A stretch of 33,512 bases of DNA from a virus. The position numbers and the translations under genes are program-made. This document shows positions 1,596 to 27,966 of this stretch, in pieces (the first letter of the stretch is position 1; each line of letters starts with the position of its first letter). The stretch lies in the IMG/VR virus record IMGVR_UViG_3300027976_000003, one strand, 5' to 3'. A model generated the notes under the pieces. That model did no database searches, was not told the origin of the DNA, and worked only from the letters and a program-made list of their open reading frames with translations.

Positions 1596-3074
1596 ATGGC
1601 ATGGACAGAAGACATTTATGGTAACCCGTTATGGCAGGATGACTATGGCGGGGACACTTCTGCTAATGGCAGTTGGGATAAGGCACAACCGCAATATGGC
1701 GGAGACACTTCTGCCAACGGCAGTTGGGATACGCCTCCAGCCGGCGCAACTCAAAAGGATGCGCAAGGTAATTGGTACGACGGCTTAGGTAATTTAATTC
1801 AACAAGCTGCTATTCCATTACTTGGTACACTTGCAACACCATGGCTTAACAACTTACAATCCGGCGGATTGCAGGATAAAGCAATTGAGATGCTTAAGGG
1901 CGGTGGCAATGTTATTGCTGGTGTAAATAGCCCAAATCTACAAGCACTTATTCCGCAACTAAGTTTGCAAGTAATGCAAGGCTTAATGACACCTGCTGAA
2001 GCACAGGCTGCATTGCAAGAAGCAAGTGGAATGAATAATGTAAACACAGACGCTGCAAGTTTGCAAGGTCAACGTGATGCATTATCTCGTTTAAGTCAAA
2101 TTGGCACAGATGGTGGAATGACGGATGCTGATCGTGCTGCACTTGCACAAACGATGAACCAAACAAGTGCTAAAACTGCACAAGACAGAGCAGCACAAAT
2201 TCAGCAAATGCAAATGCAAGGTAATGCAGGCACAGGGACTGAATTAGCAGCACGACTAAGCGGCGTACAAAGCGGTGCTAATGCAAATGCGATGGCTGGA
2301 GCACAAACTGCACAGTCTGCACAAGCACGAGCATTAGCAGCAATTCAAGCAGGAATGCAAGGTAACAGTGCGCTAAACACATCACAGTTTGACCAACAAG
2401 CAAGGAAGGCACAAGCACAGGATGCTGTAAATAATTTCAATGCTACTGCAAGAAACTCAATGAATCTTGCTAACCAGGGTGCGCAGCAAGCGGCTAACAT
2501 GGCCAACTTCAATACACGTAATACTATCGAAGGTACTAATACAGGTATTCGTAACCAGCAAGCTACAATGCCATTACAAGTTGCTAATCAGCAATTTGCA
2601 AATGACATGACCCGCGCTACAAATGCAAGTAAGGCACAAATTGGTGCGGGTTCTGCAATTGCTAAGATGGCCGGGGAGCAAATGGCTCGCAGCGGTAATG
2701 CAGCAGCAACAGCCCCGGCAGCAACTACAGGATCGAGCGGTAGCAACACTGCAAATACAATTGGCAAAGTTGTAGACATTGGTAGTAAGTTATGGGGTAT
2801 GTTCAGCGATGAACGTATGAAGACTGATAAGAGAGAACTTCAAGATGACGATGTAGATACAATGATGGCAAAGCTTACCGGCTATAAGTACAGATATCGT
2901 GGCAATGACCAAGAGCAACATGGTGTAATGGCACAAGATATGGAACATGGTATGAAGGATAGTGTTATTGATACCCCAGCCGGTAAAGTTATTCAACGCC
3001 CAGACGCGTTAAGTAATGCGCTTGCGGTACTTGCTAACCAGCATGATCGCATTAAAAAATTAGAAGGAAAATAA
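1596..3074 (+). CDS. Fibre/needle-like protein with a C-terminal peptidase S74 intramolecular-chaperone (auto-cleaving) domain
   Basis: SD aaggga lies upstream of the ATG. The body is Q/A/N-rich low-complexity sequence with YGGDTSANGSWD x2 at the N-terminus. The C-terminus from S404 (nt 2805) reads SDERMKTDK...GVMAQDMEH...LAVLANQHDRIKKLEGK. This matches the SDxRxK start and the G-h-h-AQ-E and L-x-x-L coiled tail of the S74 chaperone domain. Confidence 0.8.
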   Translation: MAWTEDIYGNPLWQDDYGGDTSANGSWDKAQPQYGGDTSANGSWDTPPAGATQKDAQGNWYDGLGNLIQQAAIPLLGTLATPWLNNLQSGGLQDKAIEMLKGGGNVIAGVNSPNLQALIPQLSLQVMQGLMTPAEAQAALQEASGMNNVNTDAASLQGQRDALSRLSQIGTDGGMTDADRAALAQTMNQTSAKTAQDRAAQIQQMQMQGNAGTGTELAARLSGVQSGANANAMAGAQTAQSAQARALAAIQAGMQGNSALNTSQFDQQARKAQAQDAVNNFNATARNSMNLANQGAQQAANMANFNTRNTIEGTNTGIRNQQATMPLQVANQQFANDMTRATNASKAQIGAGSAIAKMAGEQMARSGNAAATAPAATTGSSGSNTANTIGKVVDIGSKLWGMFSDERMKTDKRELQDDDVDTMMAKLTGYKYRYRGNDQEQHGVMAQDMEHGMKDSVIDTPAGKVIQRPDALSNALAVLANQHDRIKKLEGK

Positions 3075-8547: not shown

Positions 8548-8576
8548 TTGACCTTTCGTGTAGTTATCTGTATTAT
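8548..8576 (+). promoter_or_regulatory. Sigma70-type rightward promoter TTGACC-17 nt-TATTAT
   Basis: TTGACC at 8548-8553, a 17-nt spacer, and TATTAT at 8571-8576. It lies in the divergent intergenic region about 60 nt upstream of the ATG at 8640. Confidence 0.5.
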
Positions 8577-8639
8577 TTATCAATAGTGGTCAATCGTGAT
8601 AAATAATAATAATAATAACATAATAAGTTGGGAGAAAAT

Positions 8640-8825: not shown

Positions 8826-8855
8826 TTGACTGATTTGACTGAGTAGTGTATAAAT
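8826..8855 (+). promoter_or_regulatory. Sigma70-type promoter TTGACT-17 nt-TATAAA, with TG just upstream (TGTATAAAT)
   Basis: TTGACT at 8826-8831, a 17-nt spacer, and TATAAA at 8849-8854. It sits immediately after the stop of the small ORF and faces the structured leader and the primase gene. Confidence 0.5.
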
Positions 8856-8863
8856 ATGCATGT

Positions 8864-8950
8864 AGCAGTTCTTGCTATATGTAGTCTGAGTTAAAATCTG
8901 AAACCCCGAATCGGCCTTTATTGGCCTTTTCGGCTGAAGCAGTTCTTGCT
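8864..8950. promoter_or_regulatory. Twin 13-nt palindromes AGCAGTTCTTGCT, 74 bp apart, flanking a hairpin (operator or RNA-hairpin candidates)
   Basis: Identical 13-mers at 8864-8876 and 8938-8950. Flanks extend the pairing differently: tgTAGCA..TGCTAta versus GAAGCA..TGCTTC. The hairpin ccgaa-tc-ggcc-tttatt-ggcc-tt-ttcgg lies at 8906-8933. Confidence 0.4.
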
Positions 8951-8953
8951 TCG

Positions 8954-9069
8954 TTTCTTGTCGCAAAATCTCACTTTCGATCGCCCCTTCACTGGGGCTT
9001 TCGATTGAGTAAAGGAGTGAGATCCCGAACTTCCGCCCATAGCAAGTATGGTGCCCCTGCGACAAGAAA
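8954..9069 (+). ncRNA. Candidate structured RNA (or ssDNA origin structure): multi-stem element closed by a 12-bp helix
   Basis: P1 pairs tttcttgtcgca (8954-8965) with tgcgacaagaaa (9058-9069). P2 pairs atctcact (8968-8975) with agtgagat (9016-9023). P3 pairs tcga..gcccc (8977-8987) with ggggc..tcga (8994-9004) around loop ttcact. There is no credible + strand ORF. It lies downstream of the promoter at 8826. Confidence 0.35.
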
Positions 9070-9172
9070 AAGATAATAACTTCTGGGGTTTAATTTATAT
9101 CCATAACTCTGGAGTTAAAAATGCCATCCATAAGTCACTGTGCAGAAGTCGTGCTTATTACGAGGAGGAACA

Positions 9173-10114
9173 ATGTTAATAAGTTTTCATCCAAAAATAA
9201 TCGGTAAGCCCATATTCGATGATAATAGGATCGCTACTATAAATGGACAGCGAGTCTATCTAAGTCACGGATGGGTAACAGGTGAGTTCGAATTCGACGA
9301 AGTGTTTGAGGTGCTCACTACACTCGGTCACGCCATGACCTGCGCACTAAAAACAGATCACCGGATCGAAACAGACTTTGTGTCACAACAATTAGCATTG
9401 GTCGATATTGATAAAGGCATGTCAATAAAGCAGTTAGAAACGCACGAGTTTTATCAAAAATACGGAAGTGGATATTATACAACACCGTCGCATACAGATA
9501 CAGATAACAGATTCAGGTTAGTGTATATGTTGGAATCACCTATCACAGTTGCAGAAGACATGAGAGTATTATACGAAAGTCTACTCGCAGTGCATGGTGC
9601 GGCCGACATTAGTTGTAAAGATCCGGCAAGGTTGTTCTTTGGAACTATCAACGCTGTTAAGAAAGAAACAACAGGCAGAGTGTTAACATCAGAGGGTGTT
9701 GTAGAGGCATATATTGCACGGGGTGCTATACTTGCGGCGAGGCCTGCACCGCAAGTATATAGCGGGTCATCTACACCGCTAAATTCGAAAGAAATTGGCG
9801 AAATTTTAGACGAACTGCACAAGTATTACCCTTCGCTGCCTTACGATGTGCGACGCGATGTCACATGGGCAGTGCTTAGTGAGTGCAGCGAAGCAGATAC
9901 AATCCAACTCATGAGGAGCAGATGGGATGATAGCAGGTTGGCCGGGAAATATGAAGTGATGATAGCAGGTCGTACAAGGGATGACATATCCATCGGCACG
10001 CTATACTTTATGATTCGACAACACAATCCGAGGTATAGAAAACAAGCGAAGTATAAAGACCAAAACTTTATGGACAATTTAATGAATAAACTAAAAAGGA
10101 AACAAAATGAGTAA
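9173..10114 (+). CDS. Archaeo-eukaryotic primase (AEP) superfamily primase-polymerase
   Basis: The listed ORF starts at a GTG (9140). The ATG at 9173 follows a strong SD gaggagg. Motifs are LALVDIDKG (DxD), YYTTPSHTD..RFRLVY (sxH plus strand) and ADISCKDPARLFFG, as in VirE-N/BT4734-like AEPs. Confidence 0.7.
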   Translation: MLISFHPKIIGKPIFDDNRIATINGQRVYLSHGWVTGEFEFDEVFEVLTTLGHAMTCALKTDHRIETDFVSQQLALVDIDKGMSIKQLETHEFYQKYGSGYYTTPSHTDTDNRFRLVYMLESPITVAEDMRVLYESLLAVHGAADISCKDPARLFFGTINAVKKETTGRVLTSEGVVEAYIARGAILAARPAPQVYSGSSTPLNSKEIGEILDELHKYYPSLPYDVRRDVTWAVLSECSEADTIQLMRSRWDDSRLAGKYEVMIAGRTRDDISIGTLYFMIRQHNPRYRKQAKYKDQNFMDNLMNKLKRKQNE

Positions 10115-10475
10115 ATTATTAGAAATAGCAAGAGCAATGAAAGCAAACAATTCCACTAAAGGTGAACTATACATACTTAGGATACCAGCACCAGAGAAGG
10201 AACATGCTAAAGCATCTGGTGCTAAGTGGAACAACGAGGAAAAACACTTCGAGGTGAGAACAGAAGACATTGATAATCACCCACTGAAACACTTACAAGT
10301 CACAAACCCTGAATGGATACAACTGAAAGGCAATATCCCGTTCGACTACAAAAAGGATTTTAAAGATGCGGGTGTGGTGTCAGATAAGATTGATGACAAG
10401 TGGTGTGACTTCGTATTGGCAACCGAGAAGTATAGTGACGTTATCAACGCATTATATGAGGCGGAGTTGATATGA
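10107..10475 (+). CDS. Small protein with two tandem ~45-aa modules of the type often fused to plasmid/phage primases and topoisomerases (recalled as DUF5710-like)
   Basis: YILRIPAPEKEHAKASGAKWNNEEKHFEV and IPFDYKKDFKDAGVVSDKIDDKWCDFV both fit h-P-F/A-x-x-K-x-x-A-K-x-x-G-A-x-W-x-x-x-x-K-x-W/F. The gene overlaps the primase stop. Confidence 0.45.
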   Translation: MSKLLEIARAMKANNSTKGELYILRIPAPEKEHAKASGAKWNNEEKHFEVRTEDIDNHPLKHLQVTNPEWIQLKGNIPFDYKKDFKDAGVVSDKIDDKWCDFVLATEKYSDVINALYEAELI

Positions 10476-10948
10476 GTGCGTTTATATGGAAGGGAGGTTA
10501 CCCACACAAAGGGTGGATTAACACAAATATAGAAGACTTAGGTGAGGGTAATTATTTCAAATGTGAGATGTGCAGCAATCCTGTAGTTCGGTACAAGCAC
10601 ACAATGGAACACCTGGAAATAGGAGCAATAAGCACAGGGTGTGACTGTGCTGAAAAAATGTCAGAGGAGTATAAAGGTGTCGGTAGTGCCAGAGAAGAAG
10701 AACTTAAAAAGTTAGCAACAAGCAGGAAGAACTTTTATGTAAACGGATGGCACGAATCTGAACAAAATACATTTAGAAAGTTAGGCAAAGATAGGCTATC
10801 AATAACAGAAGTTAACAACAGTTACTACTGGTTAGTTGAAAAGGACACAGACGAGTACTCAAATGTGTTTAATAACACACCGTGCAGCACAGAATTAGAA
10901 TCAAAACAGAAGATATGGGATATGTATAAAGATGAAGGATGGAAATGA
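10472..10948 (+). CDS. Cys-rich (zinc-ribbon-like) protein of the replication module
   Basis: CEMCSNPVVRYKHTMEH...GCDCAEKM. An ATGA overlap links it to the upstream gene. Confidence 0.5.
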   Translation: MSAFIWKGGYPHKGWINTNIEDLGEGNYFKCEMCSNPVVRYKHTMEHLEIGAISTGCDCAEKMSEEYKGVGSAREEELKKLATSRKNFYVNGWHESEQNTFRKLGKDRLSITEVNNSYYWLVEKDTDEYSNVFNNTPCSTELESKQKIWDMYKDEGWK

Positions 10949-12366
10949 TAGATAAAACGACAAAGGCATTATTGCCACAACTAATAATAGATACAGTAGA
11001 TGCACTGGGGAAACTAACAAACGCACCGGACGAGATGACCATCCCCATAGTATTGTCTATCGCCAACTTTGCAACACAAGGATTAAATGACGCCAACCCT
11101 CTTATGTGGAAACGATGTCCTGTGTCTGAATACTTTATGATACTTGTGCCAAGTGGTGGGATGAAATCGGGTGTTACCGACTACACACTCGACGGCATTA
11201 AGGATTTCGAGAAGCAACAAAAGTTGGCAACGAAACAAGATATAACAGCATACCTGGTAGATAAGAAAAAATATCTTAAAGATGTCGAAGCAGTAGTAAA
11301 AGACCCAACATTACCTTATCCAACATTACCTGAACGCCCACGCGGACATAAAGTGCGTATCGAGAAAGGAACAACAAATGGTATCATCAATACGCTCAGA
11401 GGTGTGCCGTTCTCATGTTTGCTTAATACAGACGCAGCGGAGTTCTTTAACAGTCACAGTTTCCAAGATAGTAATAAGTCTATGGAAATGATTAGTATGT
11501 TGTCGAAACTGTGGTCGGGGGAAAAAATCGAACGCAATACAGGTATAGAGGATGATAATGTGGAACTTACCGATAGACGGTTTAATATGTTGATGTTATT
11601 ACAACAACAAATGGCTGGGTTTCTCGTAGATAACAGATATAAGGATCAAGGTTTCACAAACCGCATTCTTATCACTCAAGCAGAACTATTTAAAAAACCA
11701 TATGTAACATCCGCCTCCCTAAGTAGTATTAAACACACCCAGGCAGCACTTGATCCATTCCATGATAAGATACTACATTTGTTGCAAAAGGTTATAAAAA
11801 CCCAAATAAAACAACATGCAGCAGCGGCTCAATATAATCAAGATGTTGAGCCAAATCAATTGATACTCGATTTAATAGAGTTCGATAAGAAAGACGGTGC
11901 AGAACAAGTTATGATAGACTTCTATAATAAAATGGGCGCTGCAATGCATGATCCATGTAACATAGAGTATCAAAACTTTATATCCAGGTTGTACGAACAC
12001 GCAGTTAGGTTGGCTGCTACATTTGCTATATTCGACGAACATAAAACCATTAATATTAAATATGCAGAGGCAGGATGTAAATTAGCAATGTGGTTTTTAA
12101 AACAGAGGCAGGATTTACAAATTGATGGGAAAGAAGTTGTGGATCCAATTGTGGAGCATGCAGAAAAAATACGTAAGTTGTGGTGGAAGATGGAGGCGGA
12201 TTACAAAGCCTCCGGCGATGAAAAAGACAAACCTACTAAGAGTAAGATAACGCAGAGATCGCATCGTGGATGGAGAGCATTATCAAGAGATAATAAGAAA
12301 CGAGTATGGGCGGAAATAGAAGGTAGGGAAGAAGACAGAATAGAAGAGGAGAACGAAAATGAATAG
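10939..12366 (+). CDS. Helicase-like P-loop protein (DUF3987/YfjI-like candidate) partnering the AEP primase
   Basis: 475 aa. Degenerate Walker A VPSGGMKSG and Walker-B-like CLLNTDAAEF. Its size and position directly downstream of a primase-polymerase are typical. An alternative start is the ATG at 10945. Confidence 0.45.
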   Translation: MEMIDKTTKALLPQLIIDTVDALGKLTNAPDEMTIPIVLSIANFATQGLNDANPLMWKRCPVSEYFMILVPSGGMKSGVTDYTLDGIKDFEKQQKLATKQDITAYLVDKKKYLKDVEAVVKDPTLPYPTLPERPRGHKVRIEKGTTNGIINTLRGVPFSCLLNTDAAEFFNSHSFQDSNKSMEMISMLSKLWSGEKIERNTGIEDDNVELTDRRFNMLMLLQQQMAGFLVDNRYKDQGFTNRILITQAELFKKPYVTSASLSSIKHTQAALDPFHDKILHLLQKVIKTQIKQHAAAAQYNQDVEPNQLILDLIEFDKKDGAEQVMIDFYNKMGAAMHDPCNIEYQNFISRLYEHAVRLAATFAIFDEHKTINIKYAEAGCKLAMWFLKQRQDLQIDGKEVVDPIVEHAEKIRKLWWKMEADYKASGDEKDKPTKSKITQRSHRGWRALSRDNKKRVWAEIEGREEDRIEEENENE

Positions 12367-12526
12367 ATCACAAGCACAAAGTTATAGAAGATTTTTGGAA
12401 AATACTATCAACGATGAGAATTTATCGTCTCAACAACGAGTAGATATTTTAAGGTATTATGTTGAAATTCACGGGTTAGTATTCGACAAAAAGAAAACTC
12501 TAACAAGTGCAACTTTTAAAAAGTAG
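12359..12526 (+). CDS. Possible 55-aa ORF (below the track cutoff) overlapping the helicase stop
   Basis: My translation is MNRSQAQSYRRFLENTINDENLSSQQRVDILRYYVEIHGLVFDKKKTLTSATFKK. The ATG sits inside ...aaaATGaatag, overlapping the upstream stop. The ORF ends inside the first iteron/inverted repeat. Confidence 0.3.
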   Translation: MNRSQAQSYRRFLENTINDENLSSQQRVDILRYYVEIHGLVFDKKKTLTSATFKK

Positions 12527-12730
12527 CATGCAAAAGTTGCACGCATAGTAGCACGGGTAAAAATCACGAAAAACCCAATAAAAACAACATTCTTAGAGGT
12601 GATTTGAGTGAAAAGTAGCAAAGTAGCATGGCATATGCTAATACGAAGTTTTGTTATGTATTCTTATATATATATGTATGCGTGTACGCGTGGTGTGCTA
12701 CCCGTGCTAATCGTGCTATTTCGTGCTATT
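12507..12730. promoter_or_regulatory. Opposed iteron arrays flanking a (TA)n tract; candidate replication origin or master operator region
   Basis: AGTAGCA at 12522, 12547, 12614 and 12622. The complement-oriented GTGCTA at 12695, 12704, 12713 and 12723, spaced 9, 9 and 10 nt, plus ATGCTA at 12635. tatatatatat at 12665-12675. An 11-bp inverted repeat gtgcaactttt/aaaagttgcac at 12507-12517 and 12532-12542. Confidence 0.5.
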
Positions 12731-12847
12731 TTTTAATTATGCAACATTTAGCGATAGCAACAACAACAGAAAATCACCAGCACTTCTAGTATGATTAATT
12801 GGCAGTAAATATTGGCAGTAGTTAAACAAACAACTAAAGGAATCAAA

Positions 12848-13045
12848 ATGAAAGAATTTAAAGAAATGTTAGATCACTTGCGAACATTGTCATATAAAGA
12901 ACAAGCCCGAATGAAACTGATAGAGGACAAGTTCGATGAATACTCGGATGCATATATTATCGAGAATGGATGGACAGTAGAAGACTTTCGAACCCAATTG
13001 AATATTTTTGATGGAGATGATTCGCATATAGAACAAAAGCAGTAA
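12848..13045 (+). CDS. Small acidic hypothetical protein
   Basis: The listed ORF starts at a TTG (12812). The ATG at 12848 follows SD aaagga. Confidence 0.5.
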   Translation: MKEFKEMLDHLRTLSYKEQARMKLIEDKFDEYSDAYIIENGWTVEDFRTQLNIFDGDDSHIEQKQ

Positions 13046-13188
13046 GCAGTTGAGTATCTATAACACGCAAGCAGGTGTCAAATACGTCAAAAAACGTGAA
13101 AAATCCAATGACAACTATGCTTAGCATTGCTTGGCTACATGAGAGGTAAATAATAGCGTAAATAAGTCATAATAATCCTTTAGATTCT

Positions 13189-13237
13189 GCCAACACTTCG
13201 GCTCCCTTTACCTTAGGGACTGTTGTGTTGGCTTTTT
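13189..13237 (+). terminator. Stem-loop followed by a T5 run (intrinsic terminator candidate)
   Basis: gccaacac (13189-13196) pairs with gtgttggc (13225-13232), with an inner tccct/aggga stem, followed by ttttt. Confidence 0.45.
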
Positions 13238-13330
13238 AACGACTACAATTTTTGCAATGAGATAAATAAGCGTGTTGTAAACTAATCATAGAGCAACAAA
13301 CTAACCTGTAAACCAGTAGCAGGAAGATAC

Positions 13331-13846
13331 ATGTCAGAAGAAGAAAAACCAAAGAAGAAATATTCTCCAGCGGGCGGACGCAAGGCAGATACATTCATGC
13401 CAGTAGAAACAACTGGCAACTTCAAACGCGACAATCCATTTCATATGAGCATTAACGAACTTATTGCTTGGAAAGAAACTGGTCAAAAGCCTAAGCTGAT
13501 TATGCGATCAGAAGAAGTATTCAACTTAGCGAAAGCTGGTATCAGCATGAAAAACATTGCTGGAGTATATTCTACTACTGAAATGACTATATTAGATAAC
13601 CCTGCGTTCTTGAGCGCTTTTAATGATGGTCGTGCGGAATGTGGGTCCAGAGTGCGTGCAATGATATATCAACATGCTGAAGCGGGCAATTTAAATGCCG
13701 CTATTCACTTAGATAAGTTGTTATCAGGTGAAATTCAACGCCAAGAGATTAAACTGGAGTTATCTACACGTCCAGCCGGAAATATAAGTGATGCTGAACT
13801 AATAGAAAGTATCGAGTTCGACGATGGCGAAGATAACCTTAACTAA
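13331..13846 (+). CDS. terS: Terminase small subunit (positional call)
   Basis: 171-aa ORF with a basic N-terminus. It lies immediately upstream of the large terminase and overlaps it. Confidence 0.5.
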   Translation: MSEEEKPKKKYSPAGGRKADTFMPVETTGNFKRDNPFHMSINELIAWKETGQKPKLIMRSEEVFNLAKAGISMKNIAGVYSTTEMTILDNPAFLSAFNDGRAECGSRVRAMIYQHAEAGNLNAAIHLDKLLSGEIQRQEIKLELSTRPAGNISDAELIESIEFDDGEDNLN

Positions 13847-15296
13847 ACAGCAAATTAAAGAGGAACTCTTCCATAGAGGAATCCTTCGCCATCTGTTGTA
13901 TCCACATCAACGACCCATCTACGACAAAATTAGAGAAGTTCTAGCAAGTGACGATATAGACAGTAACAGTTATGTAATTGACTGTGCGAGACAATTCGGA
14001 AAGTCGTTTATCATGTTTACAATAGCAGTAGAAGAGTGTCTAAGAGAACCTTACACCACCATTGCGTACATTGCACCACTTAAGAGCCAAGTAATAGAAA
14101 TTGTAACAGAAGCCACATTTCGCACTATATTCGCAGATGCACCAAAGGAACTTATTCCAGTGCTGGACGGTAGTGCATTAGCATTCAGCAATGGTAGCCG
14201 TATTAGACTTGCAGGAACTGACAATAAGAACTATGCTAACTTACGCGGTGGTAAAGCACATCAAGTATTATTAGACGAAGCAGGATTCATGGCAGACTTA
14301 GACATTGGTGTTCTACCATCTGTAACACCTATGTTGAAAACAACGGGTGGTAAACTTATCTTTGCATCTACACCACCCGAGAACTTAGATCATCCTTACC
14401 AAGATATTCTAAAAGACCACGAAGAGTCTGGACACATTAGCACATATACAATTCACGACGATAAGTCCTTAACTGAAAAGCAACTAAACAAAATTATACA
14501 GGATTGTAGAGGACAGGATACAACACTATTCAAACGTGAGTACGAATGTCAGCGTATCGCTGAATCAAGTCTACAAGTGATACCAGAGCTAACACACGAA
14601 GTAAGCCTCAAAATACTACAAAAAACACGCGAAATCGTAGATGACCTGCATCAGTACTATACCAAGTATGTGGTTGTCGATTGGGGCGGTAAAGACAAGA
14701 CCGCAGTTATATTTGCTTACTATGATTATCGTGCCAAGTCTGTAATTGTAGAAGACCATTTAGATCTAAGTGGTGCTGAAATAAGCAGTGGTAGAATTGC
14801 AATAGCCATTAAGGATAAGGTAAAGGAACTCTGGCCTACTACAGAACATCGCAAAGACATACGTTACATATGCGATAGTAACAATGTGCTTATTCAACAG
14901 GAAATGATTAACACATATGGTCTACCATTCGTAAGTACAAGCAAGAGTAAGTTAGAAAGTCAAATGGTACAAAAAGTGCGGGACTGGATATTCGACGAAC
15001 GCATAGAGTTTCTACCAGCTGCAGAGTTTGTACTTAGAAGTGCAGCAAGTGCTTGGTGGGCTAAATCACGCGATAAGTTTGCACGTAGTAAGATATACGG
15101 TCACTATGACCATTGTGCTGCACTTATATACTTAATTCGCAATGTAGACGAAACAAGCGATCCGTTACCTCTAATTAGAAATGCAAACATACATACACAT
15201 TTTATTGATCCGCTGATACAAAATAAGCATACTGGTCAAATTGGAGAATTACAACAAATATTCAACCCACGTAAGGGTATGAGTTTTAGGAGATAA
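13824..15296 (+). CDS. terL: Terminase large subunit
   Basis: Walker A CARQFGKS, Walker B HQVLLDEAGF and a C-terminal nuclease-type acidic motif VVVDWGGKD. It is 490 aa and precedes the portal. Confidence 0.9.
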   Translation: MAKITLTKQQIKEELFHRGILRHLLYPHQRPIYDKIREVLASDDIDSNSYVIDCARQFGKSFIMFTIAVEECLREPYTTIAYIAPLKSQVIEIVTEATFRTIFADAPKELIPVLDGSALAFSNGSRIRLAGTDNKNYANLRGGKAHQVLLDEAGFMADLDIGVLPSVTPMLKTTGGKLIFASTPPENLDHPYQDILKDHEESGHISTYTIHDDKSLTEKQLNKIIQDCRGQDTTLFKREYECQRIAESSLQVIPELTHEVSLKILQKTREIVDDLHQYYTKYVVVDWGGKDKTAVIFAYYDYRAKSVIVEDHLDLSGAEISSGRIAIAIKDKVKELWPTTEHRKDIRYICDSNNVLIQQEMINTYGLPFVSTSKSKLESQMVQKVRDWIFDERIEFLPAAEFVLRSAASAWWAKSRDKFARSKIYGHYDHCAALIYLIRNVDETSDPLPLIRNANIHTHFIDPLIQNKHTGQIGELQQIFNPRKGMSFRR

Positions 15297-15297
15297 G

Positions 15298-15549
15298 ATG
15301 AAAAAGCTACCATCATTAGTAGAAACTATTAAAACATTAGAAGCAAGCGAAATTGCTAAAGAAGTATTGGATAATATATTAGAACGTAAACAAGAGCTCG
15401 AGGATTATGTCGCAGTTGTTCAACCACTATTATATACAATTAGTGTTGCATTATATGGTGAGGACAATGCAGAGGATGTAGCATTATCCAAACTTGTATT
15501 CGATGCTATCAATTTAATCAACAGAACAACAGATGAACCATGTCACTAA
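15298..15549 (+). CDS. Hypothetical acidic protein
   Basis: 83-aa ORF with an SD, tightly packed. Confidence 0.55.
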   Translation: MKKLPSLVETIKTLEASEIAKEVLDNILERKQELEDYVAVVQPLLYTISVALYGEDNAEDVALSKLVFDAINLINRTTDEPCH

Positions 15550-15791
15550 AGCACACACACTATTTAGGTAAGCCTTGTGTTAACGGTCACGTAAATGACG
15601 ACGGTTATTCGATACGATTAAAGAGTTCCAGTGCTTGTGTAGCATGTAATAAAGAGTCAACACAGAGGAATAGACCAGTAACAACTAGGGGAGACCCTCC
15701 ACTTAAAAGTACAGCAAAATGTACAAATTATTGGAGCGGAACATTAACACAACTTAGAGCGAAACTTAAAAGAGAAGGAGAATTAGTATGA
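15540..15791 (+). CDS. Small zinc-ribbon-like protein (GKPCxNGH...CxxC motif)
   Basis: YLGKPCVNGHVNDDGYSIRLKSSSACVACNK is a motif recurrent in small phage proteins. Confidence 0.5.
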   Translation: MSLKHTHYLGKPCVNGHVNDDGYSIRLKSSSACVACNKESTQRNRPVTTRGDPPLKSTAKCTNYWSGTLTQLRAKLKREGELV

Positions 15792-16027
15792 AAAAAGAGA
15801 AAGTAAAGGTAAGTGGAATATTCCACAGAGTAACACGCGCACCAATGGGTATGTATGGATTGGAGTCAATTACAGTTGAGGACGGCGTCGTAACTGAAAG
15901 TAAAGTAGTAGATCCAAACTATCCAACTATTACACTTGCACAATTCGGTAAGCAAGCATTTGTCGAAGCACAAGAAGCATACGACAAACGTTCGCAGGAA
16001 GAATATGCAAAACAGGAAAACAAATGA
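15788..16027 (+). CDS. Hypothetical protein
   Basis: 79-aa ORF with SD gaaggag. Confidence 0.55.
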   Translation: MKKEKVKVSGIFHRVTRAPMGMYGLESITVEDGVVTESKVVDPNYPTITLAQFGKQAFVEAQEAYDKRSQEEYAKQENK

Positions 16028-16290
16028 GTTTCATTGTTTGGCCATTAGTATTACTAATAGTTGCAGCATTGAGTTTCTACTTGCTTAATAAGTATCTAGA
16101 CCAGCGACAATTAGAAATTAACCTAAGAAACTCTATAAATAATGGAGCAGCTGATGCTGCACTTGCTGTTGCCGCTAAAGAGTTGCACAAACAATTCGAT
16201 GAGCGGATAAACAAAACATGGGAGACCATCGCGATCACCAAAACGGAACTCGAATCTCTTAAGTTACAGCTTGCAATTAAGGGTAAATGA
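16024..16290 (+). CDS. N-terminally membrane-anchored coiled-coil protein
   Basis: FIVWPLVLLIVAALSFYLL is followed by a charged helical region. ATGA overlaps occur at both ends. Confidence 0.55.
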   Translation: MSFIVWPLVLLIVAALSFYLLNKYLDQRQLEINLRNSINNGAADAALAVAAKELHKQFDERINKTWETIAITKTELESLKLQLAIKGK

Positions 16291-18377
16291 TGGAACAATT
16301 TGGTAATAACGATCCCATAGTGGACGAAAACTTAGATGAAGATCTGTACGACAAACAAGTGGAAGACGATTGGGCACTTAAATATTTTGCAGCGGCACCT
16401 ACAAGGGAATGTGCTGATGAAATTCTTAAGCGTTGCGACGATTATTGGACATTCTGCAAAACAAGTAACTGGTTCGAGAACTGGAGAAAACTTTACTATG
16501 CATACAATCCAAACAGGTATGTTGCTGGTCAAACAATTATGGCAGGCGAAAGTAACGAGTATAGGACAATTAAAGTAAATCACTTCCGTAATTTACTGGA
16601 ACATATCCAAACACTATCCATTACAGACCGTCCTGCTTGGCAACCACAAAGCACTAACAGTGATAGTTCAAGCCAAAAGCAAACTATTATTGCAGCAGGT
16701 GTATTGGATTATATGATGCGCGAAAAGCGTGTAGAACGTCACTTACGAGATGCAACACGAAATGCATTGTTGTTTACCGAGGGTTTCGTTAGTGAACGCT
16801 GGGAACCACAAGCCGGTAATGCAATTGCACAAGACCAAGACACTGGTGAAAAACGCCACGACGGTGATATTAAGTATTCCAGTCATGAGCCAGTAGACGT
16901 AGTACGTGATCCAAACCTTAAGCACTTCAGCCAGCGTTCGTGGATTGTATTACGCACATATGAGAACAAGTATGATCTTGCTAAACGTTATACAGAGTAT
17001 CAGGATGAGATTATCGACTGTAACTTAGGTGTAAGCAATGTTAACCACTACATGGCTGGGCAGTTTATGGATAGAAGTATAGAAACTGATCTTATTAGTG
17101 TGCTGAATTTCTACCACGTAAAGTCCCCGGCATGCCCAGAAGGTAGACAAATTACTATGTTACCGGACGGCACAGTATTAACAGACAGCATTCTGCTTTA
17201 TAAGCACTTGCCAATACATAGAATTGTAGCAAATGACCAACCAGGCACTCCAATGGGTATGTCTGTTAGCTTAGACTTACTTCCGTTACAGGAAATGTTA
17301 GATGCGCACTATAGTACAATTCTTTCAATTAACGAAAACTTTAGTATTCCTAAAATTCTATTGCCAACTGGTAGTAACATTATGGCGGACACACTAAGCC
17401 AGGGGTTTCAAGCAATCAGCTATAATGCACAAAGCGGCAAACCAGAAGTAATGATTATGCCAACAGCACCGGATGGGCTGTTTAAAGCAATGTTACAATT
17501 GCAACAGGATATGGAAACAATCTCGGGTGTTAATAGTGTAAGTCGTGGTAACCCAGAAGCATCACTAAAGTCTGGTTCGGCACTTGCATTAGTTCAATCT
17601 ATGGCAATACAATTCAATGCTCCGTTACAACAGTCATACATACAACTATTGGAAGATGTAGGCACTGCTACTATTCAAATCATGCAAGACTATGCTAATA
17701 CACCGCGTATTATCCAAATTGCTGGCAAACGTAATAAAGGTATTGTACAACAGAGTTTCACAAATGAAGACATTAGTGGAATTAGTAGAGTACAGGTACA
17801 GGCAGGTAATCCACTAAGCAAAACAGTTTCAGGTAGACTAAGTATTGCACAGGATTTATTGCAGAATCAAATTATTACTACAGCAGCAGAGTATCTAATG
17901 GTATTAGAAACAGGATCGTTGGAACCAATGATACAAGGCCCAACAAGTGTATTGCTTAACTTAGCAAGCGAGAACGAACTGTTATTGGATGGAGAGCAAG
18001 TTCCAGTATTGTTTACAGACGAGCATATTTTACACATACAGGAACACACAGCACTTGCAAGTGATCCGCAGATTAGGATGGATCCGGAAAGGTTTGGTAT
18101 GTTGGCACAACACATTCAAGAGCACATCATGATGTTAAGTGACCCGATGTATCAAAATTTCCGTATGCTTACTAACCAGCCAAGCTTACCAGGTGCAGCA
18201 CCAAGTGGTATGCCACAACAACAGCAAATTGGAAATAACCAAGCAGCCGCTACTACGATGAGTGCAAGTAACGGACCTAATCCGCAAGTGCAAGAGAAGG
18301 CAAGTAAGGTAAACATGCCAAATTCACCAGCAAACGCTTTAACAGGCGAAAGACCAGAACTGGCACAACCAGTATAA
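16287..18377 (+). CDS. Portal protein
   Basis: 696-aa ORF lying between terL and the scaffold/capsid genes. Its size and position are typical. The C-terminus is Q/P-rich. Confidence 0.75.
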   Translation: MMEQFGNNDPIVDENLDEDLYDKQVEDDWALKYFAAAPTRECADEILKRCDDYWTFCKTSNWFENWRKLYYAYNPNRYVAGQTIMAGESNEYRTIKVNHFRNLLEHIQTLSITDRPAWQPQSTNSDSSSQKQTIIAAGVLDYMMREKRVERHLRDATRNALLFTEGFVSERWEPQAGNAIAQDQDTGEKRHDGDIKYSSHEPVDVVRDPNLKHFSQRSWIVLRTYENKYDLAKRYTEYQDEIIDCNLGVSNVNHYMAGQFMDRSIETDLISVLNFYHVKSPACPEGRQITMLPDGTVLTDSILLYKHLPIHRIVANDQPGTPMGMSVSLDLLPLQEMLDAHYSTILSINENFSIPKILLPTGSNIMADTLSQGFQAISYNAQSGKPEVMIMPTAPDGLFKAMLQLQQDMETISGVNSVSRGNPEASLKSGSALALVQSMAIQFNAPLQQSYIQLLEDVGTATIQIMQDYANTPRIIQIAGKRNKGIVQQSFTNEDISGISRVQVQAGNPLSKTVSGRLSIAQDLLQNQIITTAAEYLMVLETGSLEPMIQGPTSVLLNLASENELLLDGEQVPVLFTDEHILHIQEHTALASDPQIRMDPERFGMLAQHIQEHIMMLSDPMYQNFRMLTNQPSLPGAAPSGMPQQQQIGNNQAAATTMSASNGPNPQVQEKASKVNMPNSPANALTGERPELAQPV

Positions 18378-18438
18378 CCCAAAATTTGGGTGTAAACCAT
18401 AATGGAGCACCCAACCATAATCTAAGCAAAGGACGATA

Positions 18439-19320
18439 ATGGAAGAAAACGTAGTAAACACAGAAGTAAGTTCAGAAACATCAAACGAACCACAAGGAGT
18501 TGGCTCGCAGTCTAAGAACCAGCCAACAAACAATGTACCAGGTGCAGCACCAGGAGAAACTAAAGCAGAAACTCTTAAGCGTATGTATAAGGTAACAGTC
18601 GATGGTAGCGAAATGGAGGTAGACGAGGACGAACTGCGTCGAGGCTATAGCCATAATAAGGCAGCAGAGAAGAAGATGCAGGAAGCAGGGATGACACGTA
18701 AGGAAGCAGAGAAAGTATTAAGCATTTTCCGCGATAATCCACGCGAAGCATTCAAGTTACTTGGTAAGGATGCACGCGCATTTGCCGAGTCTGTAATTCA
18801 AGACGATTTAGACGAAGCAATGCTTAGTAAAGATCAAAAAGAACTTAGAGACTATAAGCGTCAATTGGAACAGTATCAACTAAGTGAAAAGTCTGCAAGA
18901 GAAGAGTATGAACGCGAACAAACTGAAACAGAAATGGCACGTTATACAGAGCACATCCAGCAAGAAATTGTTGGAACACTGGAAACTGCTGGATTACCGA
19001 GAACAGAGCGTACAGTTGGTCGTATCGCGTACTATATGCAGGCAGCATTGCAAGCAGGTTACAATGATGTAACTCCAAAGGATGTAATTGAGTATGTGCG
19101 TAACGATTATGTAACAGACTTTAAATCCTTTATGGGTGGTATGTCAGAACAGCAAATAGAAATGTTCTTAGGTGCAGATACAATGCGTAAGGTAGCAAAG
19201 TCTACACTAAGCAGCGGAATGAAAGAAAGAGTAGTACCAAAGTCGGTTAACACTAACATTCAACCACGTGATAAGGACAAGAAAGTAGTATCTCCAAGGG
19301 AATACTTTAAGAGAAAGTAA
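18439..19320 (+). CDS. Scaffolding protein
   Basis: 293 aa, highly charged (E/K/R/Q-rich) and helical in character, lying between the portal and major capsid genes. Confidence 0.65.
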   Translation: MEENVVNTEVSSETSNEPQGVGSQSKNQPTNNVPGAAPGETKAETLKRMYKVTVDGSEMEVDEDELRRGYSHNKAAEKKMQEAGMTRKEAEKVLSIFRDNPREAFKLLGKDARAFAESVIQDDLDEAMLSKDQKELRDYKRQLEQYQLSEKSAREEYEREQTETEMARYTEHIQQEIVGTLETAGLPRTERTVGRIAYYMQAALQAGYNDVTPKDVIEYVRNDYVTDFKSFMGGMSEQQIEMFLGADTMRKVAKSTLSSGMKERVVPKSVNTNIQPRDKDKKVVSPREYFKRK

Positions 19321-19337
19321 CCATTTGTATAAATACA

Positions 19338-19379
19338 GTTATAGATTCGAAAGCCTAAGGGTACATTCGAATCTATAAC
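19338..19379 (+). promoter_or_regulatory. Perfect 14-bp stem / 14-nt loop hairpin between the scaffold and capsid genes
   Basis: gttatagattcgaa (19338-19351) pairs with ttcgaatctataac (19366-19379). There is no T-run. TGTATAAAT (19326-19334) lies directly upstream. Confidence 0.5.
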
Positions 19380-19490
19380 AAACACTTAGTTAGAAGATTT
19401 TACGAGCCCCGAGGGTAAACTCCACAAATTGGAAAACTGGTACAAATAGAGTAATTTTTATTAACGCCATTATTCAAGGAGAATTATATC

Positions 19491-20753
19491 ATGGCTGGAA
19501 CCACAACAACAGACCTAAATGGTCTATTTAAGGAAGTTTATGCTTCCGACCTTATTAACTTAATCCCAGACGAAAGTCTTTTAGTTAAAGCAATCAAATT
19601 CCAAGGACGCGAGCACTTACTTGGTCTCACTTATAACCAACCGGTTATTGTACGCTCGGAACAAGGCTTTACATATAGCCGCCCAGATAATGGTGCGTTT
19701 GCTATCGAAGTACCAAGTTCAATGAAGACACGTAATGCATCGTTAGGAGCATTCCAAATCATCGAAAACAGTGGCATTTCGTACGAAGCAGTATCGCGTT
19801 CGAACAACGCAAACAGTTTCAAAGAAGCTACAGCACTTGTTATGCAAGACGCTATGGAATCCTTTGGTCGTAGAATCGAAATGGCTTTGCTATACGGTCA
19901 GGCAGCAACAGGCTTAGGTGAAATGCTATTGGCTACAAACGTATCCGCAACATCGACAACCATCACATTTGCAGCTGGACAGTGGTCTGCTGGTTTGTGG
20001 ACACCGTTGGAAGGTGCATCGTTGGACGCATATAGCTCAGCCGCAGCACACTTAAACACAGCCGCTCCATTAGTTGTAGCATCAATTGACGTAGTTGGTA
20101 AATCAATTACTGTTACTGGTGCAGCAGGCGACATTACAGCAGTAGAAGCAGGTGAAGTTGGTGGTTGGTTGCGTTTCTATAGCGCAGGTAGCGATGGTGC
20201 AGACGAAGCAGTTGGACTAGACAAAATCATGACCAACACAGGTACATTGTTCGGCATTGACGCAGCAGTTTACTCGCTATGGAAAGCAAACACATCAGCA
20301 GTCTCTGGCGCGTTGACACTTGCTAAGATTCAAGCTGGAGTTGCAACAGCAGCAGCACGTGGATTGAGCGAAGATGTATCCATCTACGTTAACCCAAGTG
20401 TATGGCAGTCATTATCTAATGAGCAAGTTGCGTTCCGTATGTTCGACAGTTCATACAGTTCTAAGAAAGCCAGCAATGGTTTCGAAGCATTGGAATTTTA
20501 CAGCCAGAACGGCAAGATCACTGTATACGCACACAAGTATGTAAAAGAAGGCGAAGCTTTTATGTTACCTACAGACCGTGCAGTACGTATTGGATCAACT
20601 GAAGTTAGCTTCAATATCCCAGGTACAGACAATGGTCAAGTGTTCATCCAGAATCCAAGCACAGCAGGCTTTACATTCCGCCTATATAGCGCACAGTCGC
20701 TATTGGTTGAGAAGCCAGCATCATGCGTGAAGTTCACTGGTATTACATTTTAA
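19491..20753 (+). CDS. Major capsid protein (HK97-fold type)
   Basis: 420 aa with the strongest SD in the window (aaggag). The N-terminus TDLNGLFKEVYASDLINLIPDES is typical of HK97-like capsid proteins. A terminator hairpin follows the gene. Confidence 0.85.
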   Translation: MAGTTTTDLNGLFKEVYASDLINLIPDESLLVKAIKFQGREHLLGLTYNQPVIVRSEQGFTYSRPDNGAFAIEVPSSMKTRNASLGAFQIIENSGISYEAVSRSNNANSFKEATALVMQDAMESFGRRIEMALLYGQAATGLGEMLLATNVSATSTTITFAAGQWSAGLWTPLEGASLDAYSSAAAHLNTAAPLVVASIDVVGKSITVTGAAGDITAVEAGEVGGWLRFYSAGSDGADEAVGLDKIMTNTGTLFGIDAAVYSLWKANTSAVSGALTLAKIQAGVATAAARGLSEDVSIYVNPSVWQSLSNEQVAFRMFDSSYSSKKASNGFEALEFYSQNGKITVYAHKYVKEGEAFMLPTDRAVRIGSTEVSFNIPGTDNGQVFIQNPSTAGFTFRLYSAQSLLVEKPASCVKFTGITF

Positions 20754-20770
20754 TTAATTAACTTGTAACA

Positions 20771-20806
20771 AGCCCCATATCCTTAACAGGACTGGGGCTT
20801 TATCAT
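20771..20806 (+). terminator. Intrinsic terminator candidate after the capsid gene
   Basis: agcccca (20771-20777) pairs with tggggct (20793-20799) and is followed by ttatcattt. Confidence 0.5.
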
Positions 20807-20841
20807 TTGCATAAATATAGTATAAATTTCGAGGATTAACA

Positions 20842-24615: not shown

Positions 24616-25604
24616 TGGGTGCAGTTTCATTATTAATGGCGGCGACACCAGCCGGACGAAAATTTATTGTTTTTGGAAACAATAATTTCAGTTATAGGTC
24701 AGATGATGGATCTACAGGATCGTGGACTGCCGGCCCAACAAAGGGATTTAGCACCTTAGGTGGCGTGGCAGCAGGCCCAGCTGCTGGGACTCTTGTGGTT
24801 GCAGCAACAGGGTCTATTACCACAACAAAGATATCCTATGACTGGGGCGCTTCGTGGACTACGAGTTCGGCATTTTCATCAATTCCGTTTTTTGGCTTAG
24901 CATATGGTAATGGTATATACATTGGGTTACGAACAAATTCAACAACTAATAATATCTATTCAAGCAACGCACTTACTTGGTCTACATTTTCTCCACCAGA
25001 GAAATTCTCGAATATCACTTTCGCTGATGGATTATTCATCGCTGTAACAACAACAGGCAAGGTATATTCTGCAACTGATCAAAGTAATTTTACTCTAAGG
25101 CATACACTTGGAGTTTCAAAAGCATTAACAAAACCCGAATACAACAACGGTTATTGGTTAATTGGGCAAGCCGGAGCAGATGCAAGTTTTACAGGCAGAT
25201 ACTTATATTCGACAAATGGAACGAGTTGGACTGAGTCCAACTATACTGCATCACCGAGTCTTACTACTCCGGCCGTTTATGCAATCGGGGCTAATAAGAA
25301 TTCCTATATACTTTCTTGGTATCGTTATAATACAATTAGTGGCACATATGAAACAGTAATTTCCGGCAGCACTAATTTAACCAGTGCATGGGGTGCCGCT
25401 ATATCTGGTACTACGGCAGTTAGTACGAACTGCACTCAATCGGTAATTATTAGCGATTATAGCGGATCCAATGACAAAGTTGTGTTTTTACCTGGTCCGT
25501 CAGGTTCTACAACCAGTTATAAATATTCAACTAATGGTGGATCAACATTTTCAAGTCAAACCATGCCAGTATCAGCATTTTGGTATGGAGGAGTATATGC
25601 ATAA
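24615..25604 (+). CDS. BNR/Asp-box repeat beta-propeller protein (sialidase-like fold; glycan-binding or depolymerase candidate)
   Basis: The listed ORF starts at a TTG (24585). The ATG at 24615 overlaps the fibre stop (TAATG). Asp-box-like motifs are SDDGSTGSW, SYDWGASW, SSNALTW, STNGTSW and STNGGSTF, spaced about 45-60 aa apart. Confidence 0.6.
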   Translation: MGAVSLLMAATPAGRKFIVFGNNNFSYRSDDGSTGSWTAGPTKGFSTLGGVAAGPAAGTLVVAATGSITTTKISYDWGASWTTSSAFSSIPFFGLAYGNGIYIGLRTNSTTNNIYSSNALTWSTFSPPEKFSNITFADGLFIAVTTTGKVYSATDQSNFTLRHTLGVSKALTKPEYNNGYWLIGQAGADASFTGRYLYSTNGTSWTESNYTASPSLTTPAVYAIGANKNSYILSWYRYNTISGTYETVISGSTNLTSAWGAAISGTTAVSTNCTQSVIISDYSGSNDKVVFLPGPSGSTTSYKYSTNGGSTFSSQTMPVSAFWYGGVYA

Positions 25605-25809
25605 TATGAAACTCGAACCTATATCTGATATAACTATAATCAAAACTGGTATAACCACCAGTGCCACCGCTGTGCCAGTTCTATCTTTTATTGGAGTAGC
25701 ATTAGCAGATTGGGTATTAATAATTACAGCCTTATGGTTTATAATGCTGATAATCGAAAAAGGATATGGCTGGTATAAAGCGTATAAAGACAACAAGGAA
25801 AGTAAATGA
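25597..25809 (+). CDS. Small (~70 aa) membrane protein with a charged C-terminus (holin-like)
   Basis: The ATG at 25597 follows ggagg by 5 nt. The hydrophobic core AVPVLSFIGVALADWVLIITALWFIMLII is followed by EKGYGWYKAYKDNKESK. An ATGA overlap links it to the fibre 2 start. Confidence 0.45.
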   Translation: MHNMKLEPISDITIIKTGITTSATAVPVLSFIGVALADWVLIITALWFIMLIIEKGYGWYKAYKDNKESK

Positions 25810-27926: not shown

Positions 27927-27966
27927 TAGAGAGAATTTTAAACAACTAAATACAACAAGGGGACAT

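Follow-up and report, generated by a model that had tools for sequence, protein, structure and literature searches.

Directly upstream of the AEP primase-polymerase gene of an uncultured phage lies a conserved and intricately folded element that is probably the 5' leader of a replication-gene messenger RNA and a riboswitch-like cis-regulatory element acting on translation. The phage is represented by a viral contig of 33,512 nucleotides (nt) (IMG/VR record IMGVR_UViG_3300027976_000003), referred to here over its full length as the window, and the region in question runs from 8826 to 9172, ending at the primase start codon. The core of the element recurs in about 20 distinct uncultured phage contigs, to which three reduced variants (L002, L046 and L118) can be added, and with seven helices and a pseudoknot it has a complexity of riboswitch grade at the very place where the strength of a phage's commitment to DNA replication would be decided. 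To our knowledge, few structured regulatory RNAs have been described for phage replication genes, and none has been catalogued for AEP primase-polymerase modules. Metagenomic catalogues commonly contain new candidates for structured RNAs, and for this one we still infer both the function of the leader and its effector; its two covariance models (R1 and R2) and the alignment A6 constitute a testable family for Rfam-style curation.

A family of leaders upstream of phage replication genes

The search began from 118 loci encoding relatives of the window primase. With the window region as query, nhmmer gave significant or near-significant matches to 8953–9077 in 6–7 of these loci, and the family was then enlarged with the help of two covariance models, by looking up more contigs and by scanning with one specific DNA pattern. 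All matches lie on the sense strand of the downstream primase/helicase operon and upstream of the operon's first gene, whose start codon follows the element at a distance of 0–105 nt. Some 15 of the 118 primase loci carry the element, many of the 118 having little upstream sequence. No other match that scored comparably well (at least 20 bits, E ≤ 0.04) was found in the fetched loci, the rest falling below 14 bits (E ≥ 0.15) and being taken as chance. From ~240 loci that had been brought in, mostly by chance, through two over-loose patterns, nhmmer selected only L282, L310 and L350, each of which turned out to belong to the family. Four loci (L372, L375, L373 and L310) were found by RNA pattern alone and have a primase homolog 250–500 nt downstream, and in L282 the place of the primase homolog is taken by a DUF5906 protein with DNA-primase PHROG matches, encoded directly downstream. 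Since loci found only by pattern also precede replication genes, the link to such genes is not simply an artefact of the way in which loci were fetched. Three further contigs, from other JGI samples, have the same sequence as the window and contribute nothing new.

An exact 21-mer scan and a single-protein scan of viral contigs found nothing. Among cultured phages, blastn with the window region and with the leader of one relative gave no DNA match, and tblastn with the primase gave three partial matches only (~34% of the protein, 34–36% identity), in Bacillus and Staphylococcus phages. The original prediction for this region, a reading of the sequence alone, had been unable to match the fold to a familiar RNA family, and a scan with Rfam 15 agrees: there are no matches in the whole window at gathering thresholds, and with E allowed up to 10 the window and two canonical members return only noise (rli22, scoring 17.7 bits where the threshold is 80, and models of small nucleolar and long non-coding RNAs). 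ARAGORN found neither a transfer RNA nor a transfer-messenger RNA in the window, and text searches of the literature found no RNA motif described upstream of AEP primase genes. Judged against Rfam 15, the leader is therefore a new family of structured cis-regulatory leaders or riboswitch candidates that is contained in no named family. This comparison does not extend to a catalogue of 8,495 unnamed candidate structured-RNA motifs from IMG/VR (PMC10690425), which average 67 nt. The leader resembles these in being an intergenic motif of uncultured phage contigs with covariation support, several of its own members coming from IMG/VR, and it is larger, at ~160–250 nt as against an average of 67 nt.

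A pseudoknotted fold supported by covariation

The members have a common order of parts. From the 5' end these are a –10-like box, the hairpin P0, the 5' strand of the closing helix P1, an A-rich linker, the 5' strand of P2, the P2a/P2b hairpin with its variable loop, the 5' strand of P3, the 3' strand of P2, the 3' strand of P3, the trinucleotide CCG, the P3' hairpin with a pentaloop NNNNG that is usually GCAAG, GGNCCUAC, and the 3' strand of P1; there follow the P4 hairpin, CCAGGACC(A)n, the P5 hairpin, UAACCAACCU, the Shine-Dalgarno (SD) sequence and the AUG. The junction nucleotides ACC...GGUGA, CCGUC and GGNCCUAC are highly conserved. Because the 3' strand of P2 sits inside the P3 loop, with linkers of ~2 nt and 1 nt, the two helices constitute a loop-strand pseudoknot, which was absent from the original description of the fold and whose geometry would resemble that of a kissing-loop helix.

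In the window, the core is the 116-nt element that the original prediction had singled out, and its perfect 12-base-pair (bp) closing helix is confirmed; the helix P2 and the hairpin at 8977–9004 are present in the minimum-free-energy fold (Table 1). The core folds at –48.7 kcal/mol, as compared with –26.3 ± 3.3 kcal/mol in dinucleotide shuffles (z = –6.83), and the same control applied to 8860–9172, as had been proposed at the outset, also shows an excess of folding energy (z = –4.77). Energy alone picks neither strand nor molecule, since the minus strand is also well folded (z = –3.97), as is the core when DNA folding parameters are used (z = –5.71).

Evidence of a different kind comes from the collected homologous contigs. 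Alignment A6 contains 16 distinct, model-aligned sequences, for which 44 proposed pairs amount to 692 cells. Of these cells 92.8% are paired, as against 71.8 ± 1.0% after partner shuffling (0 of 500 shuffles reached as high), and pairing falls to 36–49% when the partners are slid by 1–3 columns; changes on both sides are seen in 36 of the 44 pairs, the corresponding number in the shuffles being 20.4 ± 2.0. Helices that were fitted by the alignment model lean towards that model. P3 and P4 lie outside it and therefore serve as independent tests of the structure, and both-side changes occur in all eight pairs of P3 and in four of the five pairs of P4. When seven sequences were aligned by MAFFT only, 18 of 36 pairs were compensated. 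The early impression that pairing rather than sequence is kept thus has the support of covariation in ~20 relatives.

Several features bear on the nature of the molecule. The wobble G9035–U9052 is G-U in 16 of 16 sequences, and A6 contains 32 G-U cells and 13 A-C cells. Taken alone the wobble pairs are a modest argument; together with the promoter upstream and an orientation that is always sense, they favour an RNA transcribed as the + strand. A protein-coding role finds no counterpart in the alignment: none of the six frames is open throughout the family, each being interrupted by stops in most of the 16, and the conserved CCCAGGACC segment falls in differing frames. The claim that the region holds no credible + strand open reading frame (ORF) needs qualification in that small ORFs do exist (51, 43 and 28 amino acids (aa) on the + strand, 129 aa on the minus strand), and stands in that none is conserved in relatives; a conserved coding signal on either strand, which the original prediction had named as grounds for giving up its view, was looked for in the 16 members and none was found.

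Other readings of individual parts were tried and rejected. The hairpin GCCCC-UUCACU-GGGGC was considered as a T-loop, and its loop varies in relatives (UUCG, CCAG, UGAA and others). A leader peptide encoded by an upstream ORF in the conserved AUCUCCCAGGACCAUAAA is at odds with one class that has no AUG, with A-run insertions and deletions that shift the frame, and with the use of other frames by L282 and L370. A group I intron, an idea that came from the GIY-YIG gene found upstream in relatives, is contradicted by a primase that is intact from residue 1, by the lack of any intron-model match, and by several members with a promoter where the endonuclease gene would be. A GGNCC/GGNCC pairing between a junction and the downstream CCAGGACC proved inconsistent, as one class has a G-A mismatch at its centre and the repeat in L107 is direct, not complementary.

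The promoter and the duplicated 5' hairpin

All of the features listed in the original prediction (promoter, hairpins, helices and repeats) were present when the sequence was re-read, among them the hairpin at 8906–8933, which folding also finds, and the direct repeat at 9076 and 9103; the region as a whole has numerous hairpins and short direct repeats. The promoter, TTGACT-17-TATAAA, agrees with the sigma-70 consensus at 10 of 12 positions. It has counterparts at the equivalent site in L370 (TTGACA-17-TATAAT) and L008 (TTGACT-17-TATAAA), with the same placement relative to the 5' hairpin as in the window, and relatives have a –10-like TAAATA or TATAAT at a like distance from that hairpin. 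The site at 8826–8854 is missing from the list of a simple promoter scanner because the scanner demands a T at hexamer position 6. From the position of the promoter, transcription is predicted to start near 8860–8862.

In the relatives there is a single P0, directly 3' of the –10 box and directly 5' of P1. When 12 such hairpins were extracted by hand from relatives and compared, the window's two copies being left out, compensated changes were seen in five of five stem pairs and 96.7% of cells were paired, and the loop (U/C)GCAAYG was nearly invariant, UGCAAYG being the form in most members. As the arms vary and the non-palindromic centre is conserved, P0 is read as a hairpin of the RNA whose loop would be functional, and it probably stabilises the 5' end of the transcript. 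The window departs from this pattern in both loop and copy number. Its P0 loop is GUUCU, unlike that of the relatives, and the hairpin is duplicated: the twin 13-mers (AGCAGTTCTTGCT) that had been noticed in the sequence sit inside a 16-mer at 8861 and 8935, with one mismatch and 74 nt apart, and each forms a hairpin. One copy (8857–8883) keeps the promoter-side place of the relatives' lone P0, directly 3' of the –10 box, and the other (8936–8952) keeps the P1-side place; the segment 8884–8935 that separates them is in no relative, where P0 directly abuts P1. The stretch 8857–8953 folds at –35.7 kcal/mol (z = –5.49). The twin palindromes are no special paired device: in this lineage the single 5' hairpin of the family has been duplicated. 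The direct repeat at 9076 and 9103, which aligns with the 3' strand of P4 and the CCAGG segment of the family, looks from its sequence like a second local duplication.

Two side observations concern the hairpin. The locus L380 (500–575) has no core domain yet has a TAAATA box, a P0-like hairpin and then an SD sequence; as the hairpin is kept there without the core, P0 appears to be a module that these early transcripts can carry separately. Secondly, the P3' loop GCAAG and the P0 loop UGCAAYG of the relatives have GCAA, a GNRA-type core, in common, and both may be recognised by the same partner or receptor. The window has GCAA in the P3' loop alone, since its P0 loop is GUUCU.

Predicted pairing with the ribosome-binding site

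An SD sequence and a start codon follow the element in every member, and no intrinsic terminator was found 3' of it in the window (scan of 9000–28900). The relation between element and start codon is most direct in L046 and L118. The latter is the closest relative of the window, with a primase that is 57% identical and a leader of ~130 nt as compared with ~310 nt in the window. Both loci keep P0, P1, P2b and the P2/P3 pseudoknot, which is formed in L118 by CCACA with UGUGG in the loop of AGUAAG/CUUACU, and in L046 by AUCUCAC with GUGAGAU in the loop of UGUC/GACA. In each, a predicted P1 of 11–12 bp has the ribosome-binding site as its 3' strand and ends 0–3 nt before the AUG, a layout which, if the modelled helix forms, is that of a classic translational OFF switch.

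The larger versions have, 3' of P1, an SD-like purine run that is the 5' strand of P4, and the 3' strand of P4 is complementary both to this run and to the true SD sequence ~70 nt downstream. The three segments change together by lineage, as GGAGA/UCUCC/GGAGA, GGAAA/UUUCC/GGAAA, GGGAAA/CUUUUCC/GGAAAAG and GAAGU/ACUUC/GAAGU. RNAfold predicts for most members that the SD sequence is paired with this anti-SD segment, its unpaired probability being near 0, in a helix that is extended by CAGG:CCU and encloses P5; L040, L107 and L008 form P4 instead. In the window, pairing of CUUCU with the SD sequence would be worth –7.5 kcal/mol, better than at 57 of 64 background gene starts.

Mode of action and its alternatives

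The original prediction had offered three options, a non-coding RNA, a cis-regulatory leader and a transcription-activated origin. The comparative data favour the leader; a free-standing RNA is without support because no terminator follows the element, and the origin is not favoured. A conserved structured aptamer domain in a 5' leader, by which a riboswitch can be recognised, is found in ~20 members, in sense orientation and upstream of the first start codon. In the mechanism that we envisage, transcription from the promoter at 8826–8854 would start at the 5'-terminal hairpin P0, duplicated in the window phage, and the transcript would then form the compact P1-closed domain of ~116 nt that contains P2, P2a/P2b, P3 and P3', with the P3 loop pairing with the P2 strand to make the pseudoknot. 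This domain would behave as the sensor (aptamer) of a riboswitch or as a protein-binding translational operator, and would most likely govern the start of translation of the first replication gene. In the simplest relatives the ribosome-binding site would be the 3' strand of P1 itself; in the larger versions the pyrimidine-rich segment after P1 would pair either with the SD-like sequence adjacent to P1, to give P4, or with the true SD sequence. We regard this competition between P4 and the SD sequence as a serious candidate, if one that falls somewhat short of being the probable arrangement.

In its general form the leader has much in common with translational riboswitches: a 5' leader with a P1-closed, multi-helix, pseudoknotted domain, conserved junctions and no terminator, in which the SD sequence would be sequestered by P1 in reduced variants and by competing anti-SD pairings in the larger ones. 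It differs from them in that no ligand is suggested, the genes encode replication proteins rather than a metabolic pathway, there is no likeness to any Rfam 15 riboswitch model, and P1 and the platform of the larger versions abut with no overlap. It is possible that the effector is a protein of the operon, such as the primase, by analogy with the autoregulation of T4 genes 32 and 43; a small molecule is rather unlikely, and what is left beside these two belongs to a leader with a constitutive or kinetic role. PMC10690425 cites the precedent of gene 32. Like the gene 32 leader pseudoknot and the gene 43 operator, the element is a pseudoknotted leader upstream of a replication gene, most relatives (the window not clearly) have an A-rich tract between the structure and the SD sequence, and nucleic-acid-binding proteins encoded directly downstream could feed back upon it; in contrast to the T4 operators, it is much larger and more complex (seven helices) and has no sequence or structure homology with them. 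It would be of great interest if the operon protein proved to be the effector, as this would be a new autoregulatory circuit. Were the leader to bind a metabolite, it would constitute a new class of riboswitch and would reveal a host signal that these phages monitor, and it is tempting, if somewhat against expectation, to imagine such a class gating phage replication genes on a host metabolite.

A number of points weigh against the proposed action on translation. The energies of pairing between anti-SD and SD segments average –6.8 kcal/mol for cognate and –5.4 kcal/mol for non-cognate combinations, a weak signal that comes from few independent changes, and against 64 unrelated gene starts the rank of the cognate SD sequence varies between 1st and 40th. 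P1 and P4 of the larger versions are adjacent without overlapping, and the route by which a signal would pass from the sensor to P4 or P6 is not evident. The window itself is a poor representative, as its P3 and P4 are degenerate, the register of its P4 differs from that of the family and its spacer to the SD sequence is longer; its SD sequence is mostly paired, in the predicted ensemble, with 9186–9192, codons 5–7 of the primase gene, and as modelled the output side has drifted there. Four loci with relatives of the same primase (L119, L120, L124 and L380) have other intergenic regions without the element, which must therefore be dispensable for such replication modules. The shuffle controls overstate significance because the sequences are related, and once the invariant wobble is set aside the G-U and A-C cells number only 16 and 13, a weak asymmetry. 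A role for the core as single-stranded DNA (ssDNA) would be compatible with its folding under DNA parameters, and transcription, the start site and the RNA fold are all predictions.

Among the alternatives, a transcribed origin or primer RNA merits the most attention, improbable as we consider it. The folded transcript or the displaced ssDNA would in this case be the start of replication, as primer precursor or as primase template. The element does head the replication module in every member, next to an AEP-fold protein whose second-best solved-structure match is the RepB' primase (3h20), the core folds with DNA parameters, and the window region has its many hairpins and short direct repeats. 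There is also a precedent in the lactococcal phage c2, where the early transcript PE1-T is non-coding, structured and essential for origin function, according to a passage in PMC7150918 that cites Schiemann 2004. PE1-T has no downstream ribosome-binding site and the c2 origin works without phage proteins (PMC7150918). The leader resembles PE1-T and the ColE1 RNA II in being a promoter-driven and highly structured non-coding RNA at the start of an early or replication region; unlike with PE1-T, a gene start always follows, within 0–105 nt, and can lie inside P1, as in L046 and L118, where the closing helix holds the SD sequence, and there is no sign of origin function. RNA II is a primer precursor. 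In RSF1010, RepB' primes on the ssiA and ssiB hairpins, which are single ssDNA hairpins of ~40 nt on opposite strands of oriV. Here too conserved hairpins lie beside the gene of an adjacent primase with a RepB'-like/AEP fold, with the difference that they belong to a pseudoknotted domain of ~160 nt on the sense strand, which is tied to a start codon. No array of at least three iterons and no AT-rich unwinding block is present, a multi-helix pseudoknot with an invariant G-U pair is more typical of RNA than of ssDNA, and some related primases are without the element. Nor does the P0 loop follow primase phylogeny: it differs between the window and L118, for all the 57% identity of their primases, and UGCAAYG is shared by loci whose primases are 30–46% identical to that of the window. 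If the element were also an origin, AEP priming would be linked to RNA structure. A dual function, in which the leader would control translation and, as the transcript itself or as the DNA strand displaced by it, would also be a structure-specific start site for the RepB'-like AEP primase-polymerase, is a little less probable still; it would couple replication-gene expression and origin firing physically on one RNA.

We think it quite unlikely that the 116-nt domain is a free-standing or processed trans-acting small RNA, released to act on targets or to sequester a protein. The domain, which P1 closes, is compact and very stable, the conserved loops (GCAAG in P3', UGCAAYG in the relatives' P0) might serve as points of contact, and an RNA of this kind would be stabilised by a 5' hairpin. 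Against this, neither a terminator nor a conserved processing signal was found 3' of the domain, the strict place before a start codon and the SD sequence inside P1 of the reduced variants fit a role in cis, and no target can be proposed.

Of about the same low order, and slightly lower, is the probability of an antitermination RNA like the put RNAs of phage HK022, in which the nascent leader would bind the polymerase and allow read-through of a rightward unit of ~25 kb. The leader is promoter-proximal, in sense orientation and at the start of a long same-strand block (8.6–33.5 kb), within which promoter-like sites are no commoner than in shuffled sequence (45 in 9000–28900, as compared with 51.8 ± 6.5). 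The same stretch contains no convincing + strand intrinsic terminators to be overridden, a P1-closed pseudoknotted domain is unlike the put RNAs, which consist of two stem-loops, covariation with the SD sequence and overlap with it indicate translation, and in several relatives the element follows a same-strand gene rather than a strong promoter.

The twin 13-mers of the window could, taken alone, be DNA operators of a dimeric repressor, being identical, palindromic and 74 bp apart (~7 helical turns, which would allow cooperativity or looping), with the first overlapping the predicted transcription start. This is very improbable: compensated variation in the arms around a nearly invariant (U/C)GCAAYG is the opposite of half-site recognition, the relatives are single-copy, G-U pairs occur in some P0 stems (L040, L107, L102 and L121), and no DNA-binding regulator was identified nearby. 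Least probable of all is a new self-cleaving ribozyme or RNA-processing element, a thought that the complex pseudoknotted fold, the conserved junctions and the small ribozymes known from phage intergenic regions bring to mind, as there is no Rfam 15 ribozyme match even at E up to 10 and nothing specific indicates cleavage.

The primase gene and its surroundings

Table 1. Features of the leader region and of the genes discussed here; positions are those of the window unless a locus is named
Feature	Position	Strand	Details
Sigma-70-type promoter	8826–8855	+	TTGACT (8826–8831), 17 nt, TATAAA(T) (8849–8854); 10 of 12 consensus positions
P0a hairpin	8857–8883	+	Stem 8857–8867/8873–8883, loop GUUCU; first 13-mer copy; 5' end of predicted transcript
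Insert between P0 copies	8884–8935	+	52 nt, window-specific; hairpin 8906–8933 (CCGAA..GGCC/GGCC..UUCGG)
P0b hairpin	8936–8952	+	GAAGCA-GUUCU-UGCUUC, stem 8936–8941/8947–8952; second copy; abuts P1 as relatives' P0 does
Conserved aptamer-like core	8954–9069	+	P1 8954–8965/9058–9069; P2 8968–8975/9016–9023; homologs by nhmmer and covariance models
Core inner helices	P2a 8977–8980/9001–9004; P2b 8983–8987/8994–8998	+	
P3 pseudoknot	9008–9010/9029–9031 and 9014–9015/9024–9025	+	Degenerate in the window
P3' hairpin	9034–9041/9047–9053	+	Loop GCAAG
Conserved junction CCUGC	In core, 5' of P1 3' strand	+	
P4/anti-SD equivalent	9065–9114	+	Degenerate, duplicated; AGAA 9065–9068 with UUCU 9081–9084; inferred from alignment
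Direct repeats	9076–9088; 9103–9114	+	ATAACTTCTGGGG; ATAACTCTGGAG; aligned to the relatives' ACAAUCUCCCAGG segment
Small hairpin, SD sequence and primase start	9149–9175	+	UCGU 9149–9152/ACGA 9160–9163; GAGGAGG 9162–9168; ATG 9173–9175
AEP-fold primase-polymerase	9173–10114	+	First gene of replication operon; PHROG DNA-primase matches; AlphaFold2 fold
Further ORFs downstream of primase	DUF3987 protein 10939–12366	+	Weak DUF5710 ORF, then 158-aa ORF, then DUF3987 helicase-like protein (DUF3987 E 4e-28)
Tail fibre	1596–3074		Peptidase_S74 chaperone domain
T4-type large terminase	13824–15296		
P22-like portal	16287–18377		
Tail-fibre-like protein	20842–24615		1257 aa
Protein with K1-lyase C-terminal domain	25806–27926		
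Reduced element	L118:2186–2316		Without P3' hairpin in usual place
Reduced element	L046:1523–1662		Without P3' hairpin in usual place

The gene at 9173–10114 was rightly labelled an AEP primase-polymerase, an assignment for which comparison of folds was needed, as its product has no Pfam or PDB sequence match. The AlphaFold2 model (predicted local distance difference test score 88.7) has as its top solved-structure match the AEP domain of the cyanophage S-2L PrimPol (6zp9_A; E 2e-5, probability 1.0), followed by RSF1010 RepB' (3h20; E 8e-3) and then by the PrimPol proteins of African swine fever virus and human. Residues D78, D80, H107, D145 and D150 are invariant and would correspond to AEP motifs I–III.

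A minus-strand gene block with a RusA-like resolvase ends at 8543, upstream of the leader, and a + strand ORF of 62 aa ends at 8816. From 8.6 kb to the window end at 33.5 kb every large ORF is on the + strand, the products of this block including a terminase, a P22-like portal and tail fibres, and the window appears to cover most of a podovirus-like genome. In a passing survey of the window no DNA polymerase gene was noticed, and two stretches of ~1 kb in the + strand block (12367–13330 and 15297–16286) are without an ORF of at least 90 aa.

Homologs of the primase that are 32–41% identical occur in bacterial contigs, namely L081 (Variovorax fucosicus NZ_JASZYU010000004.1) and L082/L083 (Methylomonas and Methylococcaceae metagenome-assembled genomes). 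These would be prophages, and they hint at beta- or gammaproteobacterial hosts for the phage group; the covariance models gave no leader match in these loci.

In many relatives (L121:545–1336; L020, L052, L040, L103 and L098; L119:1306–1995) a GIY-YIG protein of ~263 aa (PF01541, E 4e-5), by appearance a homing endonuclease of the free-standing kind, is encoded just upstream of the leader. The stop codon of its gene overlaps the leader's –10-like TAAATA; the window has instead the 62-aa ORF and a full promoter. At the other end of the leader, a mini-ORF of seven codons (ATGTTATTATGC...) with a well-spaced SD sequence overlaps the primase start codon in L020 (1895–1915), and likewise in L310. 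As the primase start that it overlaps is without a nearby SD sequence, translational coupling is suggested in that lineage.

Finally, an AT-rich inverted repeat lies at 8559–8620 of the window, with arms of 24 nt that are 79% complementary and 14 nt apart. It falls in a divergent intergenic region of 84 nt, flanked by the minus-strand gene block and the 62-aa ORF, and it overlaps a promoter-like TTGACC-17-TATTAT (8548–8576); its role could be that of an operator or of a divergent promoter region.

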